64,000 bases of DNA from a bacterium (GCA_030430165.1 JAUIGL010000006.1:5412-69411); one strand, 5' to 3'. Counted from the first letter of the stretch, positions 1 through 60,171 are shown. Program-made: numbers and translations. The notes: generated by a model from the sequence alone, not told the origin.

Positions 1-630
1 TGCGCCCGCATGGAGGCACCGCCGATCGGCGACTGCGACGGCAACGGAACGGTCGGAATCGCCGACCTGACGCGTTGCGTGAACATTTCCCTGGGCAGCC
101 CGCTGCGCACCTGCTGGACCGCCGACCCCGACGGCAACGGCCAGGTGAGCGTCAGTGACCTGGTCAAAGCAGTCAACGCCGCTCTCGACGGCCCGGTCTA
201 CTCCGAGGCGCCGCCCGAGCTGCTCTACACCAACCTGGTGTACAACGATCCGACGGTGGTGCGCTTCGACCCGCCGCGTGAGTACCCGGGCCAGACTTCG
301 AACCTGATCGACCGCACCCTCACCTACTGCAACCTCTACGACAACGGCTTCACCGATCCCGCCGAGGTGAAGAACCGCACGACCTCGCCGCAGACGCCGA
401 TCGGCATCCCCGGCGTCGCCGGAGGTCCGTGTCGCATCCCCACCGGTTGCACCGAAGGCCTGGTCGGCGAACGTTGCTCGGGCAATAGCGAGGCGGCGCG
501 CAACGCATCCTGCGACACCTCCCCCGGTGCCGGCGACGGATTCTGCGACGCCTGCACCCTAGGCGGCGGCGTCACCACCGAGGATGAGATGTTCATCCTG
601 ATGGGCGGTTTCTACGTCGACAACCGTTGA
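1..630 (+). CDS. C-terminal part of a secreted Cys-rich protein (5' end lies outside the window). It has a four-Cys dockerin-like module followed by a tail paralogous to the C-terminus of the Cu-monooxygenase-like protein at 11804..13780.
   Basis: The frame is open from nt 1. Module GDCDGNGTVGIADLTRCVNISLG...DPDGNGQVSVSDLVKAVNAALDG is at nt 25-192. The C-terminal GGVTTEDEMFILMGGFYV aligns with GELADDDMCNLFGYFIP of the 11804 protein. GC3 is high. Confidence 0.6.
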   Translation, partial: CARMEAPPIGDCDGNGTVGIADLTRCVNISLGSPLRTCWTADPDGNGQVSVSDLVKAVNAALDGPVYSEAPPELLYTNLVYNDPTVVRFDPPREYPGQTSNLIDRTLTYCNLYDNGFTDPAEVKNRTTSPQTPIGIPGVAGGPCRIPTGCTEGLVGERCSGNSEAARNASCDTSPGAGDGFCDACTLGGGVTTEDEMFILMGGFYVDNR

Positions 631-669
631 GCAGAGAGGCCGGGGCGGTTTCCGCCCCGGCCTCTCTGC
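631..669. terminator. Perfect 17-18 bp GC-rich hairpin between convergent genes; no clear U-tract.
   Basis: gcagagaggccggggcgg (631-648) is the exact reverse complement of ccgccccggcctctctgc (652-669). It starts right after the TGA at 628-630. Confidence 0.5.
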
Positions 670-672
670 GGT

Positions 673-57120: not shown

Positions 57121-58665
57121 CTACATATTGTGGAGTGGGGGCTGGTCCGCACCCGCCGTATCGGCCAATCCGGGCACGGCGCAGCCGTCCCCCGCCAGCG
57201 CCGCGGCGAGGCGGCTGCCCGGCCTCAGATCGGCCCCCAACCAGTCGACGGCGAGGCTCGCCGCCACCCGCGTCGCCAGCACGCAGTTGCCGAGCTCGGT
57301 GAGGTGCCCGAAGTCGCCGGCGAAGCGGTCGATGAAATAGGCGTCGTAGCCGTTGCGCGCGACCAGTGCGGCAAAGCCGGAGTTGTCGACGAAGCGGACC
57401 TCGCGGTGCTGCGCCAGCAAGCGGCGCAGCCCATCGACCCGGCGCACCGGATACTGCACTGCCAGCAGGGTCATGCCGCGCTCGACGGCGAGCCCGGCGA
57501 GCTCGCCGTATTGCTGCCGCGTATCCGGATTCACGTACTCGTGACGCATCGCCCTCTGCAATCGGCGATAGGCGAGCGCCTCCTCGGAGCGACCGATCCG
57601 TTCCAGGTAGTCGATCAGGTGCTGGTAGGCGACGTCGTCGCCGAGACGCACATCCTCGGCGATTTCGCGATAGACCTCGACCGCCGCATCCTGCCGGCCG
57701 GCGCGATCGAGAAGCCGCGCCAGCTCGAGCCGGTAGTGAATCTGTTCGTGCGGCAGGCGGGGGTCGGCCCGCGCCACCGCCTCTCTGACGGCGGCGATCG
57801 CCTGATCCTCGTCGCCCCGCTCGGCCAGAACCAGTGCCGCATCGGCATACAGGGGCGCACCGGCGCCCGGCATCGCGTCGAGGGCGGCGATGACCAGTCG
57901 ATCCGCCTCGTCGGCGCGACCCAGCCGGCGCAGGGCGCGAGCCTCCAGAACCAGCGGGATGTCGAAATCCGGGTAGCGCGCGCGCAGGGCGCGCGCAGCC
58001 TCGAGCGCGCGCCGGTAGCGTTGCTCGGCGAGCAGACGCCCGACCGCATCGACTCGCCGCATCGCGCTCTCGCCCGGCGGCGTCGGCCGCGCCACCTCGG
58101 CAGTCGCCTCGGCCGGCTGGCGCGACGCCGGTAGCCCCTGCACCTCGACCAGACGCGGCGGCGGCGGAGCCCAGCCGAATCCACTGCGCAGAAAGCGATA
58201 CAGCTTGTAGAGGCGCCACTCGCCGTACCAATGCCCCCTTCCCGGTTCGAGCACACTACCCCAGGCGTGGGTGCGTCCGGCATCGTTGACCCCCATCATC
58301 GCGACCACGACATCCGGGTCGATCGCGTCGAGGTCCCAGCGAAACATCTCGAGCAGCTGTCGCGTGGTCGCTCCCGACATTCCCTTGTTCACCACCGCGA
58401 AACGAATGCCGAGTTGCTCGCGATTGAGAATCTCCTCGAGCATTTCCGGGTAGCTCCGGCGGCCCGGTTCTCCCTCGGTGGTCGACTCGCCGAGGCACAC
58501 CACGCGAACGTCGTGCTTCTCGCGCAGCGCCGCGTAGTTGCGCTGCTGCTGGCGCGCGCGAATGACCGCGCCGGCCGTCCGCATACCGACCTCGACGAGC
58601 AAGGCACCGGCGCTCAGACCGGCCACCACCAGGGCGATCCGGGTCAGCCAGCGTCGCACCGCCAC
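57121..58665 (-). CDS. Membrane-anchored SGNH/GDSL-type hydrolase-like protein interrupted by a ~270-aa TPR-like insertion
   Basis: Block I VVCLGESTTEG, block III MMGVNDAG and block V GDFGHLTELGN. Helical repeats rich in A, L and R lie in between (…EARALRRLGRADEADRLV…LARLLDRAGRQDAAVEVY…). Confidence 0.6.
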   Translation of the reverse strand: MAVRRWLTRIALVVAGLSAGALLVEVGMRTAGAVIRARQQQRNYAALREKHDVRVVCLGESTTEGEPGRRSYPEMLEEILNREQLGIRFAVVNKGMSGATTRQLLEMFRWDLDAIDPDVVVAMMGVNDAGRTHAWGSVLEPGRGHWYGEWRLYKLYRFLRSGFGWAPPPPRLVEVQGLPASRQPAEATAEVARPTPPGESAMRRVDAVGRLLAEQRYRRALEAARALRARYPDFDIPLVLEARALRRLGRADEADRLVIAALDAMPGAGAPLYADAALVLAERGDEDQAIAAVREAVARADPRLPHEQIHYRLELARLLDRAGRQDAAVEVYREIAEDVRLGDDVAYQHLIDYLERIGRSEEALAYRRLQRAMRHEYVNPDTRQQYGELAGLAVERGMTLLAVQYPVRRVDGLRRLLAQHREVRFVDNSGFAALVARNGYDAYFIDRFAGDFGHLTELGNCVLATRVAASLAVDWLGADLRPGSRLAAALAGDGCAVPGLADTAGADQPPLHNM

Positions 58666-58812
58666 CTCGCAACCCGACCGCGCGCACGCGCGTCGCCGGC
58701 AGGGTGAACCACAGTGGTCTCGCGTCGTCTCATGCGGCGCCCCCTAGCAGACATGCCCGGCTGAGCAAGCGCGCAACTGGCAAACCCCGCGCCCGCGTTG
58801 TATCGATCGAAG

Positions 58813-60171
58813 ATGAATCGAGTCGCCGCACTGCTGATCATCGTTGCATCGTTCACACTGCTTCCCACTGCGAGCCCGGCACAGGCGACCACACCGTGTG
58901 TCGGCGATTGCGACATCGACGGGCGGGTCGCCATCAACGAGCTCATCACCGGTGTCGGAATCGCTCTCGGATCGCAACCGATCACCGTCTGCGCCGCGTT
59001 CGACACCGGCGCCGACGCGACCGTCCAGGTCGGAGAGTTGGTCAGCGCCGTCAACTCGAATCTGAACGGCTGCCTCGCCGCCCCGGCCCTGTTCGGCGAA
59101 GCAACCAAGCTCTGCGTCGGCATGCAGCCCGATTGGATTGCCGCCGCCGACGTCGACGGCGACCAGATTCCCGACCTCGTCGTCGTCAACCGCGACTCCA
59201 ACGATGTTTCTGTGTTGCTCGGCAACGGCGATGGCACGTTCGCCGAAGAGGTCCGCTACCCCGTCGGCGGCAGCCCGCGCGCCGCCGCATCCGCCGACTA
59301 CGACGGCGACCGCTTGCACGAGCTACCCGACCTCGACGGCGACGGAGACCCCGACATCGTCACCGCCAACCGCGACGACCGCGGTCTTTCGATCCTGAGC
59401 AACCTCGGCGACGGAACCTTCGCCGAGGCAACCACGATCGAGATCCCCGATTCGCGGCCGATGGCCGTTGCCGCCGCCGACCTCGACGACCAACCGGGCT
59501 ACGACATCGCCGTCGCCAGCGCCGCCCCGGGCGACGGAGCGGTCTTTCTCTACCCCGGGCTCGCTGCCGGCACGACACAAGTCACCGGACTCGAGCCGCG
59601 CGACCTCGACGTCGTCGATCTCGACGGCGACACCCTCACCGACCTCGTCGTCTGCAACCTCGGATCCAACGACGTGTGGGTGTCGCGCGGCCTCGGCGAC
59701 GGCGAGTTCGCCCCGGTCGCCACCGTGCCCGTCGGCGCCGAGCCGCGGCGACTGGCGACCGGCGACATCGACGGCGACGGCTTCGCCGAGATCGTCACCG
59801 CCAACCAGGCGGGCGACAGCGTCTCCCTGATCGACAACGACGCCGGATCGGTGGCGGCGCATGCCGACACCTATGATGCCGGCAACAATCCCCGCGGCGT
59901 CGAGATCGCCGACATCGACGGCGACGGGCTCGGCGACCTGGTGATCGTCGGACGAGGAACCGACTCGCTCCGCATCCTCACCGGCGCCACCTCGGGCGTG
60001 CTCGCGCTGCGCCAGATCATCGAATTGCCCGACTCCGACTGCAGCGGCGGCGAGCTCAACCGCTCGCGACCGCGCGGGGTAGCAATCGCCGACCTCGACG
60101 GCGACGACAAGCTCGACCTGGTGAGCGTCAACTCGGGCAACGACAGCATCTCGATCCTGCTGCAGCGCTGA
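58813..60171 (+). CDS. Secreted FG-GAP/VCBS-repeat (integrin-alpha-like beta-propeller) protein with an N-terminal four-Cys dockerin-like module
   Basis: Signal peptide MNRVAALLIIVASFTLLPTASPAQA. Module CVGDCDIDGRVAINELITGVGIALG...VQVGELVSAVNSNLNGC at nt 58897-59073. Repeated DxDGDGxxDLVxxNxxSNDVSVLLGxGDGTF units follow. Confidence 0.75.
   Translation: MNRVAALLIIVASFTLLPTASPAQATTPCVGDCDIDGRVAINELITGVGIALGSQPITVCAAFDTGADATVQVGELVSAVNSNLNGCLAAPALFGEATKLCVGMQPDWIAAADVDGDQIPDLVVVNRDSNDVSVLLGNGDGTFAEEVRYPVGGSPRAAASADYDGDRLHELPDLDGDGDPDIVTANRDDRGLSILSNLGDGTFAEATTIEIPDSRPMAVAAADLDDQPGYDIAVASAAPGDGAVFLYPGLAAGTTQVTGLEPRDLDVVDLDGDTLTDLVVCNLGSNDVWVSRGLGDGEFAPVATVPVGAEPRRLATGDIDGDGFAEIVTANQAGDSVSLIDNDAGSVAAHADTYDAGNNPRGVEIADIDGDGLGDLVIVGRGTDSLRILTGATSGVLALRQIIELPDSDCSGGELNRSRPRGVAIADLDGDDKLDLVSVNSGNDSISILLQR

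Follow-up and report, generated by a model that had tools for sequence, protein, structure and literature searches.

A cysteine-framed dockerin-like module in a Binatia genome and cohesins as its candidate partners

A 64,000-nucleotide stretch of DNA from an uncultured, presumably diderm, Binatia lineage (hereafter, the window) encodes seven proteins that each carry a small dockerin-like module, and these modules are attached to unrelated passengers. This raises the question of what the module is and what it may bind. A preliminary description of the window treated the seven, one of them a looser, classical version, as one module, dockerin/EF-hand-like and framed by four invariant cysteines, with a role in surface anchoring or assembly via a receptor for which it had no candidate. 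Our data support this interpretation in part, and of the possible roles for the module, surface anchoring or assembly has the strongest support.

Modules and host proteins in the window

All seven coordinate ranges given for the module translate to its motif in the expected frame. Translation and HMM matches place six of them in a single 59-aa family with the pattern CxGDC[DN]xDGxVxIxEL…C…DxDGDGxVxIxEL…GC. Pairwise identity among these six copies was 44–56%, and residues D4, C5, G9, L16, V20, I22, L24, G25, C32, D36, L48, and G58 were invariant in their alignment. The seventh range (3846–3989, minus strand) represents a separate, classical dockerin subtype. It scored 29.4 bits against Pfam Dockerin_1 (cut-off 22.9), its first loop is degenerate, and in the subtype alignment it belongs to the five-member “LACDVTGDG” subtype. 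It is a standard Pfam dockerin that lacks the Cys frame, and was rejected as a member of the 4-Cys family. Its host (1965–4253, minus strand) has, in order, a signal peptide, the dockerin, a TRTPT-type Thr-X linker and a C-terminal domain that matched no Pfam family.

The hosts of the six family members vary considerably. The copy at 25–192 (plus strand; HMM match C12_3831_6038, iE 4e-25) is an internal, two-Cys variant that retains C5 and C32 and has no outer Cys pair. A CX4CH/PHM-like paralogue carries it as an insertion in the C-terminal half; this 663-aa protein has a signal peptide and a GCTSLACHG (CX4CH) motif ahead of the module, and only the 3' part of its gene (1–630, plus strand) is in the window, as the ORF starts ~1.36 kb upstream (G000:C12:4050). 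The module at 10351–10527 (minus strand; iE 5.5e-28) lies directly after the signal peptide of a 199-aa protein (10003–10602, minus strand) and is followed by a CX4CH (SCAFAGCHGG) cytochrome-like domain; the homologues of this protein have EF-hand as their only Pfam label. The module at 11888–12064 (plus strand; iE 4e-26) is likewise directly behind the signal peptide, in a 658-aa protein (11804–13780, plus strand) that continues with a CX4CH domain and a large Cys-rich catalytic-type domain. The module at 13881–14054 (minus strand; iE 2.8e-26) is at the extreme C-terminus, with the stop codon 7 residues further on, of a 730-aa protein (13857–16049, minus strand) having a signal peptide and a PQQ/BamB-type beta-propeller (Pfam PQQ_2, 3.2e-27). 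The remaining two modules both follow signal peptides. That at 42185–42361 (minus strand; iE 1.2e-25) precedes a Thr-X (TRTPT) linker of ~370 aa and a C-terminal domain of ~190 aa without a Pfam family match (host 40484–42484, minus strand; alternative starts 42451 or 42442), and that at 58897–59073 (plus strand; iE 1.6e-26) precedes an FG-GAP/VCBS beta-propeller (Pfam FG-GAP_3, 2.2e-41) in a 457-aa protein (58798–60171, plus strand; alternative ATG 58813). The passengers are thus as unrelated as had been described, based on Pfam for the two propellers and on the CX4CH motifs and Thr-X linkers visible in the sequences, and the putative Cu-monooxygenase among the window passengers matched 0 Pfam families.

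Predicted dockerin fold and cysteine frame

Sequence profiles and structure prediction indicate that the 59-residue module is a divergent type-I-like dockerin with two loop-helix (F-hand) segments. Column frequencies in 112 copies and DSSP analysis of an AF2 model (pLDDT 94.9) revealed two 12-residue Ca loops, each with a helix (loop 1–12, helix 13–23, loop 36–44, helix 45–57), and each half has an EF-type loop of the pattern D-x-[DN]-x-[DN]-G-x-V-x-I-x-E. The predicted model has the dockerin fold, as its best PDB matches in Foldseek were dockerins in cohesin complexes (3ul4_B, 5nrm_B, 4uyq_B, and 2ccl_B; TM 0.6–0.7, probability 0.99). Homology to bona fide dockerins was also found at the profile level, with hhalign aligning 54 of 59 columns to a set of 11 classical dockerins from this genome at 96.2% probability (E 2.4e-9). 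All six window copies scored under the Pfam gathering threshold (22.9 bits), and genome-wide a single 4-Cys copy was over the Dockerin_1 cut-off (29.8 bits), with ~8 others just below it at 19–22 bits.

Clostridial type I dockerins (PF00404; 3ul4_B, 5nrm_B, 2ccl_B, and 2vn5_B) share with the module a length of ~60 residues, a duplicated 12-residue Ca loop plus helix, the same fold by prediction (TM 0.6–0.7) and near-symmetric halves, which are compatible with a dual binding mode. The module differs from them in that the six window copies fall under the Pfam gathering score, in having four near-invariant Cys (probably forming two disulfides) and in having Glu for Asp at loop position 12. The module departs from the pattern DxNxDGxxNxxD, which has Asn/Asp at position 9 and Asp at position 12: the latter position is Glu in 100/112 copies in loop 1 and 89/112 in loop 2, and position 9 is Ser, Thr or Ala. 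The loop sequences suggest that the module binds Ca2+.

Of the earlier dockerin/EF-hand-like label, the dockerin half stands, based on fold and profile–profile homology, but the module is not an EF-hand hybrid. EF-hand pairs (PF13499/PF00036, such as the calmodulin lobe and polcalcins) have the loop consensus D-x-D-x-D-G-x-V-x-x-x-E in common with the module and give weak sequence matches; EF-hand_1 was just over its cut-off in one of the six window hosts (10003–10818; 26.3 versus 25.4 bits) and below it in the others. However, the module has no entering helix before loop 1 or loop 2, and calmodulin and polcalcins did not superpose on it (TM only 0.3–0.4, rmsd above 10), and the EF-hand pair was therefore rejected. 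The loops are of canonical EF type, having Glu at position 12, and this and the weak EF-hand Pfam matches would also fit a module with no docking role at all, that is, a partner-less folding or stability cap, stabilized by Ca2+ and disulfides, for large exoproteins that fold only once outside the cytoplasm, like RTX or EF-hand-like Ca switches. We consider such a cap unlikely, as the fold is that of a dockerin and not of an EF-hand pair, and for further reasons of placement and gene context given below.

The four cysteines are not invariant throughout, as had been described, although 94 of 112 copies have all four. Fourteen copies have only the inner pair (-CC-), including that at 25–192, and four have a single loss, and therefore the outer Cys are lost as a pair. 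Because C1 and C59 are jointly absent in those 14 copies, we infer that they form a disulfide, and the module is likely braced by two, C1–C59 and C5–C32. The former would join the N- and C-termini of the module as a covalent “intramolecular clasp”, and the latter would pin loop 1 onto the inter-repeat linker. In a dockerin intramolecular clasp, contact between the N- and C-terminal ends stabilizes the fold; compared with such a clasp, the one in the Binatia module would be covalent. A clasp of this kind is reported for the R. flavefaciens ScaA dockerin (PMC3821032). Absence of the outer pair is common among internal copies; in the PHM-like paralogues, for instance, the termini would instead be held by the host domain.

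Copy number, placement and cargo of the module

The preliminary description proposed scanning this genome and its relatives with an HMM of the module, and looking for a co-occurring cohesin-like partner. An HMM built from the six window copies and run against the 6.6-Mb genome matched about 112–116 domains in ~110 ORFs. The 116 domains, matched at E-values as low as 1e-28, indicate that the module is not a chance resemblance. The window contains 6 of 112 copies versus 1.09 expected (Poisson P = 9e-4), and shares with a stretch of contig C60 the highest copy density of any 64 kb in the genome, and so local enrichment of the module is real but modest. The copy density that had drawn attention to the window is therefore genuine, but the phenomenon is genome-wide. 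Within the order, 31/31 genomes have the module, at 9 to at least 150 copies per genome. At least 129 copies were found in a genome that bears the label Candidatus Binatia. Among 121 genomes sampled from the phylum it was found in only two, both from this order, and the HMM found 0 copies in the remaining 119 or in 12 named genomes from other phyla. The module is thus lineage-specific, as had been proposed, being order-wide in Binatia and without a match elsewhere in the phylum sample. In a search across 1.84 billion proteins, 7,885 representative ones matched at E<=1e-10.

The N-terminal, C-terminal and internal placements noted in the window were borne out genome-wide. Of 112 copies, 48 are within 110 residues of the protein start, usually directly behind the signal peptide, 45 finish no more than 12 residues ahead of the stop codon, and 19 are internal. 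The module is therefore N-terminal as often as C-terminal, unlike clostridial type I dockerins. A signal-peptide-like N-terminus was called in 104/110 hosts by a crude, home-made heuristic only, and the carriers are probably secreted to the cell surface. The 19 internal copies, some of them within an enzyme core, are oddly sited for a plug and would suit a folding cap better; however, ~93 of 112 copies are at protein ends, on unrelated passengers, as is usual for an interaction tag. A sorting or secretion signal, recognized and perhaps removed by a dedicated export machine (cf. the T9SS CTD or PEP-CTERM/MYXO-CTERM), could also account for the strictly terminal placement seen in most carriers and for the lineage-restricted expansion. 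We regard this as very improbable, as the module is found at the N-terminus (following a normal Sec signal), at the C-terminus and at internal sites alike, and no sorting signal is known to vary in position in this way. In addition, it is predicted with confidence to be a folded, globular dockerin without a transmembrane segment, and the real sorting tails of this genome, of MYXO-CTERM type, are on other proteins.

The cargo includes PQQ, FG-GAP and BNR propellers, M10, M28, S8 and imelysin peptidases, haem proteins and putative Cu-monooxygenase-like proteins, and many cargo proteins have no known family. The 25 most frequent Pfam families in 80 module carriers included no glycoside hydrolase or CBM family, and identity as a cellulosome was rejected on that basis. 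Unlike clostridial cellulosomes, the cargo is not carbohydrate-active and the host is a member of the Binatia rather than an anaerobic Firmicute.

Cohesins and a candidate display system

The absence of cohesins from the window was correctly noted, as 0/15 cohesin ORFs are on its contig (C12). Because none is within the window, cohesins were invisible to the preliminary description, and candidates can now be named for its receptor: 15 ORFs of the genome contain 25 cohesin domains, with MYXO-CTERM-type anchor tails on some of these proteins and fusion to the module in three. The assignment as cohesins is based on sequence and predicted fold. One match to Pfam Cohesin (PF00963) was over the cut-off (28.3 bits), and a profile of 11 cohesin domains retrieved nothing but cohesins from the PDB sequences (best match 2.5e-8, over the full length). 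The AF2 model of a cohesin domain (pLDDT 96.7) was assigned the nine-stranded jelly-roll fold of cohesins, as its top 50 PDB fold matches were all cohesins (TM 0.70–0.78).

The cohesin proteins include one five-cohesin scaffoldin with long TPT linkers, whose sequence showed no CBM on visual inspection, and eight proteins with MYXO-CTERM-type anchor tails. These tails have the layout ...DDGCAVA..., a hydrophobic helix and then RRRR, and four of six tested exceeded the 20-bit cut-off of TIGR03901 (22.9–29.1; the other two scored 14.4 and 18.5). The tail type is that of Myxococcota surface proteins, but here it occurs in Binatia and on cohesin scaffolds. By a strict tail filter, the genome has 14 MYXO-CTERM-like ORFs, of which 5 are cohesin proteins, and none of the 110 module hosts has such a tail. 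That the genome's own surface anchor is often on cohesin proteins and never on module carriers argues against a folding cap.

Three ORFs (adaptors C120, C151, and C69b) contain cohesin fused to module, in each case of the 4-Cys type. In this genome a module gene is within 2 kb of 4/12 unfused cohesin ORFs (permutation mean 1.3, P = 0.03), a modest statistic. A recurrent cluster, in which module genes are immediately followed by a cohesin ORF, was found in seven genomes, which represent at least four genera; six of them have two module genes in the cluster and G001 has one. The cluster is operon-like, with 4-Cys cargo genes beside a two-cohesin anchor gene. Both the fusions and these gene neighbourhoods in several genera are at odds with a folding cap. 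The search for a co-occurring partner also yielded a candidate, as cohesins were found in 31/31 genomes of the order and 0/119 outside it, which is the phyletic pattern of the module.

Other observations count against a simple pairing. In sister family f4, cohesins (4–17 per genome) are roughly equal to or more numerous than 4-Cys modules (9–11), and therefore the cohesin system is older than the 4-Cys expansion and has no one-to-one tie to it. In another order of the same class, one genome has 16 classical dockerins and no detectable cohesin, and therefore dockerins can exist without cohesins, which is consistent with a folding cap. The present genome also has ~13 classical dockerins, which its cohesins could serve instead. 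The module could then be a docking tag for a non-cohesin receptor, for example LPS/EPS or an outer-membrane protein, or could associate homotypically with another module, with cohesins binding classical dockerins only. The f4 genomes, with 7–20 classical dockerins in addition to their plentiful cohesins, and the strong divergence of the 4-Cys family from Pfam Dockerin_1 fit this explanation, but we find it improbable. Cellulosome producers usually have some three to five dockerins for each cohesin, and 25 cohesins for ~13 classical dockerins inverts that ratio. Furthermore, the three adaptors join cohesins specifically to 4-Cys modules, and in the conserved cluster the cargo genes paired with the two-cohesin anchor gene are of the 4-Cys type.

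The use of cohesins and dockerins outside cellulose degradation has precedents in A. fulgidus (2xdh) and C. perfringens NagH/NagJ (2ozn), whose cohesins were among our fold matches. Earlier non-cellulosomal cases have one or few modules per genome, unlike the ~116 + 13 dockerins, 25 cohesins, and full hierarchy of anchors, adaptors and primary scaffoldin here. A 2009 paper by Peer et al. in FEMS Microbiol Lett reportedly deals with non-cellulosomal cohesin and dockerin modules. The preliminary description had allowed that the module might prove to be an already characterized family; dockerins are one, but we found no description in the searchable literature of the Cys-framed subfamily or of its non-cellulolytic, diderm context. 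Clostridial type I dockerins are likewise on many unrelated secreted proteins and accompanied by multi-cohesin, adaptor and anchoring scaffoldins. As Glu at position 12, the likely disulfides and the frequent placement directly after the signal peptide all differ, the binding mode of the module may differ from that of characterized dockerins.

Overall, we think it probable that the modules and cohesins constitute a non-cellulosomal cohesin–dockerin system for display or assembly, in which binding of module to cohesin is suggested by fusions, gene adjacency and co-occurrence. Carrier proteins would be exported via their Sec signal peptides, and outside the cytoplasm the module would fold with Ca2+ and oxidized cysteines. 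It would then plug into cohesins of scaffoldin-like proteins of the same genome, the candidate sockets being the eight MYXO-CTERM-tailed, surface-anchored proteins, the five-cohesin scaffoldin and the three cohesin–module adaptors. On a diderm cell this would give a hierarchical system for display or assembly, in the style of a cellulosome, that organizes ~110 non-cellulolytic exoproteins.

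Copies of the module in the window and beyond

The seven stretches that a preliminary description had read as copies of one four-cysteine dockerin-like module all translate as it stated, but six of them, not seven, form one family. These six modules are 58–59 residues long, have a mutual identity of 44–56% in their alignment and are invariant at D4, C5, G9, L16, V20, I22, L24, G25, C32, D36, L48 and G58 (module positions). The seventh stretch, 3846–3989 (-), is a classical dockerin of another family (Pfam Dockerin_1, 29.4 bits versus a cut-off of 22.9). The host ORFs of the six modules lie at 1–630 (+), whose start is 1.36 kb upstream of the window and whose module (25–192, +) is by its translation a variant without the first and last cysteines, and at 10003–10602 (-), 11804–13780 (+), 13857–16049 (-), 40484–42484 (-) and 58798–60171 (+). 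Third-position GC is high in all six, as expected for genes in a genome of 67% GC. Of the passengers, the PQQ-type and the FG-GAP propeller were both matched by Pfam, and the CX4CH motifs and Thr-X (TRTPT) linkers are evident from the host sequences themselves. Loci retrieved with the FG-GAP host were mostly unrelated FG-GAP proteins, and the module was present in only one of them, L027.

Several other features were noted at these loci. Two module-bearing genes flank an ORF at 10669–11628 (+) that overlaps the region upstream of the 10003–10602 gene. The 1–630 (+) host has approximately eight paralogues with N-termini of the form CE(Q)xFDSTYDLIQ and a CX4CH motif (e.g., C46:46372–48516, C146:33419–35404, C79:30969–32915, C40:3730–5892 and C130:2198–4315, on other contigs of the source assembly, G000). 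In this family a two-cysteine module is found ~130–145 residues before the C-terminus, placing the dockerin within the enzyme body and not at its end. In two window proteins, at 41066–42184 (-) and about 2900–3300 (-), the Thr-X linkers are very long and have Arg at regular intervals (TRTPT/TRTQTGTRT). They are unlike the acidic or neutral linkers (TPTDTPT/TPTNTPT) of a five-cohesin scaffoldin elsewhere in G000 (C94:18340–25035), and these two kinds of linker, basic and neutral, may be signs of O-glycosylation or of proteins with different roles.

An HMM scan of the genome and its relatives had been proposed in the preliminary description. An HMM built from the six window copies was applied to every six-frame ORF of the 6.59-Mb assembly, in which the window is C12:5412–69411, and found 116 good domains in ~110 ORFs on 63 contigs. 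Its E-values, to 1e-28, and this number of copies rule out chance or low complexity. The window holds six copies versus 1.09 expected (P = 9e-4) and is, tied with contig C60, the densest 64-kb stretch of the genome for modules. The module is nevertheless a genome-wide and order-wide expansion and no peculiarity of the window, as it was present in all 31 genomes of the order. Copies per genome ranged from 32 to at least 150 in its own family, 46–89 in two sister families and 9–11 in a fourth (f4), and a genome labelled "uncultured Candidatus Binatia bacterium" had at least 129. Of 121 sampled genomes of the phylum, only the two belonging to the order had the module. Profile searches found none in two genomes of other orders of the same class, and there was likewise none in 12 named genomes (Planctomycetota, Acidobacteriota, Myxococcota families, Eisenbacteria, Gemmatimonadota and others). 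Among 1.84 billion representative proteins, 11,664 matched the module profile at E ≤ 1e-3 and 7,885 at E ≤ 1e-10.

A Sec-type N-terminus was called, by a crude heuristic for signal peptides, in 104 of the 110 carriers. Forty-eight modules stand directly behind the signal peptide, with the first Cys often 0–3 residues past the AxA/Q site, 45 end ≤12 residues from the stop codon, and 19 are internal. Because so many modules begin this close to the signal peptide, a lipoprotein lipobox at the first Cys was considered; it was dropped since the preceding residues are mostly of the A-x-A/Q signal peptidase I type, not L-[AS]-[GA]-C. A role as a sorting signal was ruled out by the mixture of N-terminal, C-terminal and internal positions. 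N-terminal and C-terminal modules formed no distinct sequence classes, with weak column differences between them (best P = 0.002, at one position, uncorrected). No carbohydrate-active family was among the 25 commonest Pfam families of 80 carriers, the majority of which had no Pfam match at 1e-5. The matches included FG-GAP propellers (5) and imelysin (2); di-haem cytochrome c peroxidase, peptidases M28, S8 and M10, glucose/sorbosone dehydrogenase, cytochrome P460, dioxygenase, NosD/beta-helix and sortilin/BNR were each found once.

Fold and cysteine frame

The window copies gave mostly sub-threshold EF-hand matches in Pfam, nothing specific in NCBIfam and, by phmmer against PDB sequences, weak calmodulin-type matches alone. 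An AlphaFold2 model based on an alignment of 68 copies from the same genome (pLDDT 94.9) has a loop at 1–12, a helix at 13–23, short turns, a loop at 36–44 and a helix at 45–57, a predicted F-hand arrangement with no entering helices. The top Foldseek matches in the PDB were dockerins of cohesin–dockerin complexes (3ul4_B, 5nrm_B, 4uyq_B, 2ccl_B and 6kge_D; TM 0.60–0.70, rmsd ~3 Å, probability 0.99), whereas EF-hand pairs reached a TM of only 0.3–0.4 with rmsd >10 Å. An EF-hand pair is ruled out by this fold and by the missing entering helices, despite the weak sequence matches. In profile–profile comparison, the module aligned with 11 classical dockerins of G000 over 54 of 59 columns (96.2% probability, E 2.4e-9), and the Dockerin_1 threshold was passed by one four-cysteine copy, with approximately eight just under it. 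Based on the fold, the profile–profile match and the Dockerin_1 scores, we are confident that the module is a divergent dockerin. It is set apart from characterized dockerins by its Cys frame, by Glu in place of Asp at loop position 12 (100/112 copies in loop 1, 89/112 in loop 2) and by having no Asn/Asp at loop position 9. These domains are currently labelled "EF-hand" or not at all, and public records of carrier homologues give "hypothetical protein", a passenger-based name or EF-hand Pfam labels only.

All four cysteines are present in 94 of 112 copies, both outer ones are missing in 14, and just one of the outer pair is missing in no more than 4; no copy lacks C5 or C32. As the outer pair is lost jointly, we infer that the disulfides are C1–C59 and C5–C32. 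With C1–C59, the terminal clasp known from dockerins would be made covalent. Copies without the outer pair are common among internal modules, such as that at 25–192, inserted in a PHM-like paralogue. There, the host domain around the module would hold its termini.

Classical dockerins, which lack the Cys frame, number ~13 in G000 and 7–20 in its relatives. The copy at 3846–3989 (-) belongs to a five-member "LACDVTGDG" subtype (the others at C10:19839–19970, C124:27919–28053, C100:4520–4657 and C74:63723–63857) that passes Pfam Dockerin_1. The first Ca loop of this subtype is degenerate and the second is conserved (LACDVTGDG[ST]VSxxDA), and the subtype may have its own cohesin specificity.

Cohesins and their linkage to the module

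The preliminary description saw no cohesin partner in the window, and indeed there is none on its contig (C12). Candidates do exist elsewhere, and were missed because they lie outside the window: iterated HMMs revealed 25 cohesin-like domains in 15 ORFs of G000, where Pfam Cohesin has one ORF over its cut-off and one just below. The cohesin profile matched cohesins exclusively among PDB sequences (12 matches, best 6kgc_A at 2.5e-8, full length), and an AlphaFold2 model of one domain (pLDDT 96.7) had cohesins as all of its top 50 fold matches (TM 0.70–0.78).

The cohesin proteins are of several kinds. The scaffoldin-like C94_18340_25035 (-) has a signal peptide, five cohesins with long TPT(D/N/Q)TPT linkers between them, and C-terminal repeat domains; no CBM was noticed by eye in its sequence. 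Three adaptor-like proteins combine cohesins with the four-cysteine module, as Coh-Coh-Doc (C120), Doc-Coh ... Doc-Coh (C151) and propeller-Doc-Coh-Doc (C69b). Eight proteins with one or two cohesins each have a tail of ...DDGCAVA..., a hydrophobic helix and RRRR. The NCBIfam model for MYXO-CTERM, a C-terminal sorting/anchor tail, was passed by four of six such tails tested, and two homologues are named MYXO-CTERM by JGI. With a strict tail filter, 14 ORFs of G000 were MYXO-CTERM-like; five of them encode cohesin proteins, and no such tail was found among the 110 module carriers. Judged by their tails, the sockets (cohesins) appear to be anchored and the plugs (modules) unanchored. A gene pair at C69:34522–38996 (-) encodes a PD40-type propeller with Doc-Coh-Doc, one module being degenerate, followed by a two-cohesin MYXO-CTERM protein; both have Myxococcus-type Cys-rich repeats (TIGR04201-like, CxxxxDCxxGxxC).

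A search for a co-occurring cohesin-like partner had also been suggested at the outset. All 31 genomes of the order were matched by the cohesin profile, at 4–35 domains each, and many of them have orthologues of the multi-cohesin scaffoldin; the 119 other genomes of the phylum sample had no match. The module has this same phyletic pattern. A module gene lies within 2 kb of 4 of 12 unfused cohesin ORFs (permutation mean 1.3, P = 0.03). In seven genomes of at least four genera, module genes (two in six genomes, one in G001) are followed directly by a cohesin ORF (G000:C56, G001:C126, G004:C48, G007:C6, G009:C459, G012:C5 and G015:C7). The contig end cuts the cohesin ORF in the G000 cluster. This fragment, C56:2–304 (-), has the same sequence as the beginning of a two-cohesin MYXO-CTERM protein at C131:3–1157 (+); therefore the two contigs probably join, and the cluster would comprise an anchor gene in addition to two cargo genes.

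In f4, cohesins are about equal to or more numerous than four-cysteine modules, so that the cohesin system must be older than the four-cysteine expansion. Dockerins of both types, or of only one, may be bound by the cohesins. A genome of the same class but another order (G068) has 16 Pfam-grade classical dockerins, no four-cysteine module and no cohesin detectable with the Binatia profile; this would mean either that its cohesins have diverged too far to be recognized or that its dockerins function independently of cohesins.

Comparison with cellulosomes and significance

Overall, our data support a disulfide-framed dockerin subfamily in ~110 secreted proteins per genome across a Binatia order. 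The earlier interpretation is partly supported and can be made more precise, as the receptor is not without candidates. The 25 cohesin domains of G000, many of them on predicted surface-anchored proteins, are the most likely receptors. We somewhat favor the mechanism as a whole, including the predicted module–cohesin binding.

A broader "oxidosome" reading is tentative, and we consider it rather unlikely in its entirety: a hierarchical, disulfide-hardened cohesin–dockerin display of exo-enzymes on the diderm outer surface throughout the order. MYXO-CTERM-anchored one- and two-cohesin proteins, Doc-Coh adaptors and the five-cohesin scaffoldin would organize more than 100 cargo proteins. These would be mainly oxidative/redox enzymes and peptidases, not glycosidases, with haem-fused Cu-monooxygenases, PQQ-type propellers, cytochrome P460, dihaem peroxidase and dioxygenase among them. 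The four-cysteine dockerin would then be a new, oxidation-adapted type with its own cohesin specificity.

Cohesin–dockerin assembly is textbook biology only for the cellulosomes of anaerobic Firmicutes, and elsewhere such modules are regarded as scattered occurrences with no established function. To our knowledge, there is no non-cellulosomal case at this scale, with a Cys-framed dockerin or with MYXO-CTERM anchors. Peer et al. are said to have found, in 2009, non-cellulosomal cohesins and dockerins in many genomes. Structures from A. fulgidus and C. perfringens were among our fold matches. In a full-text collection with few subscription journals, no paper linked Binatia/Binatota with dockerin or cohesin, and none of the papers listed for MYXO-CTERM or Binatota/Binatia described such a system. 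Gram-negatives and the Binatia lineage are unmentioned in a 2024 survey of cellulosome-displaying bacteria.

The Binatia system resembles a cellulosome in its predicted plug-and-socket assembly, for which it has primary, adaptor and anchoring scaffoldins. A cellulosome it is not, because no CAZyme cargo was seen in the 80 carriers scanned and no CBM in the scaffoldin sequence. In an uncultured soil/sediment lineage, there are ~116 module copies per genome and ~7,900 cluster representatives in public data. The set of scaffoldins that accompanies them, anchoring, adaptor and multi-cohesin, is complete, and the cargo is not cellulolytic. The oxidosome reading, if true, would make this the first system of assembly on the scale of a cellulosome to come from outside Firmicutes and to serve something other than polysaccharide degradation. 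If the predicted binding is true, the plug-and-socket principle would have found another use, on the scale of cellulosomes, in a different kind of extracellular chemistry, the module would offer protein engineering a naturally disulfide-stabilized dockerin for oxidizing conditions, and it would be a simple sequence tag defining the surface-displayed exoproteome of Binatia.
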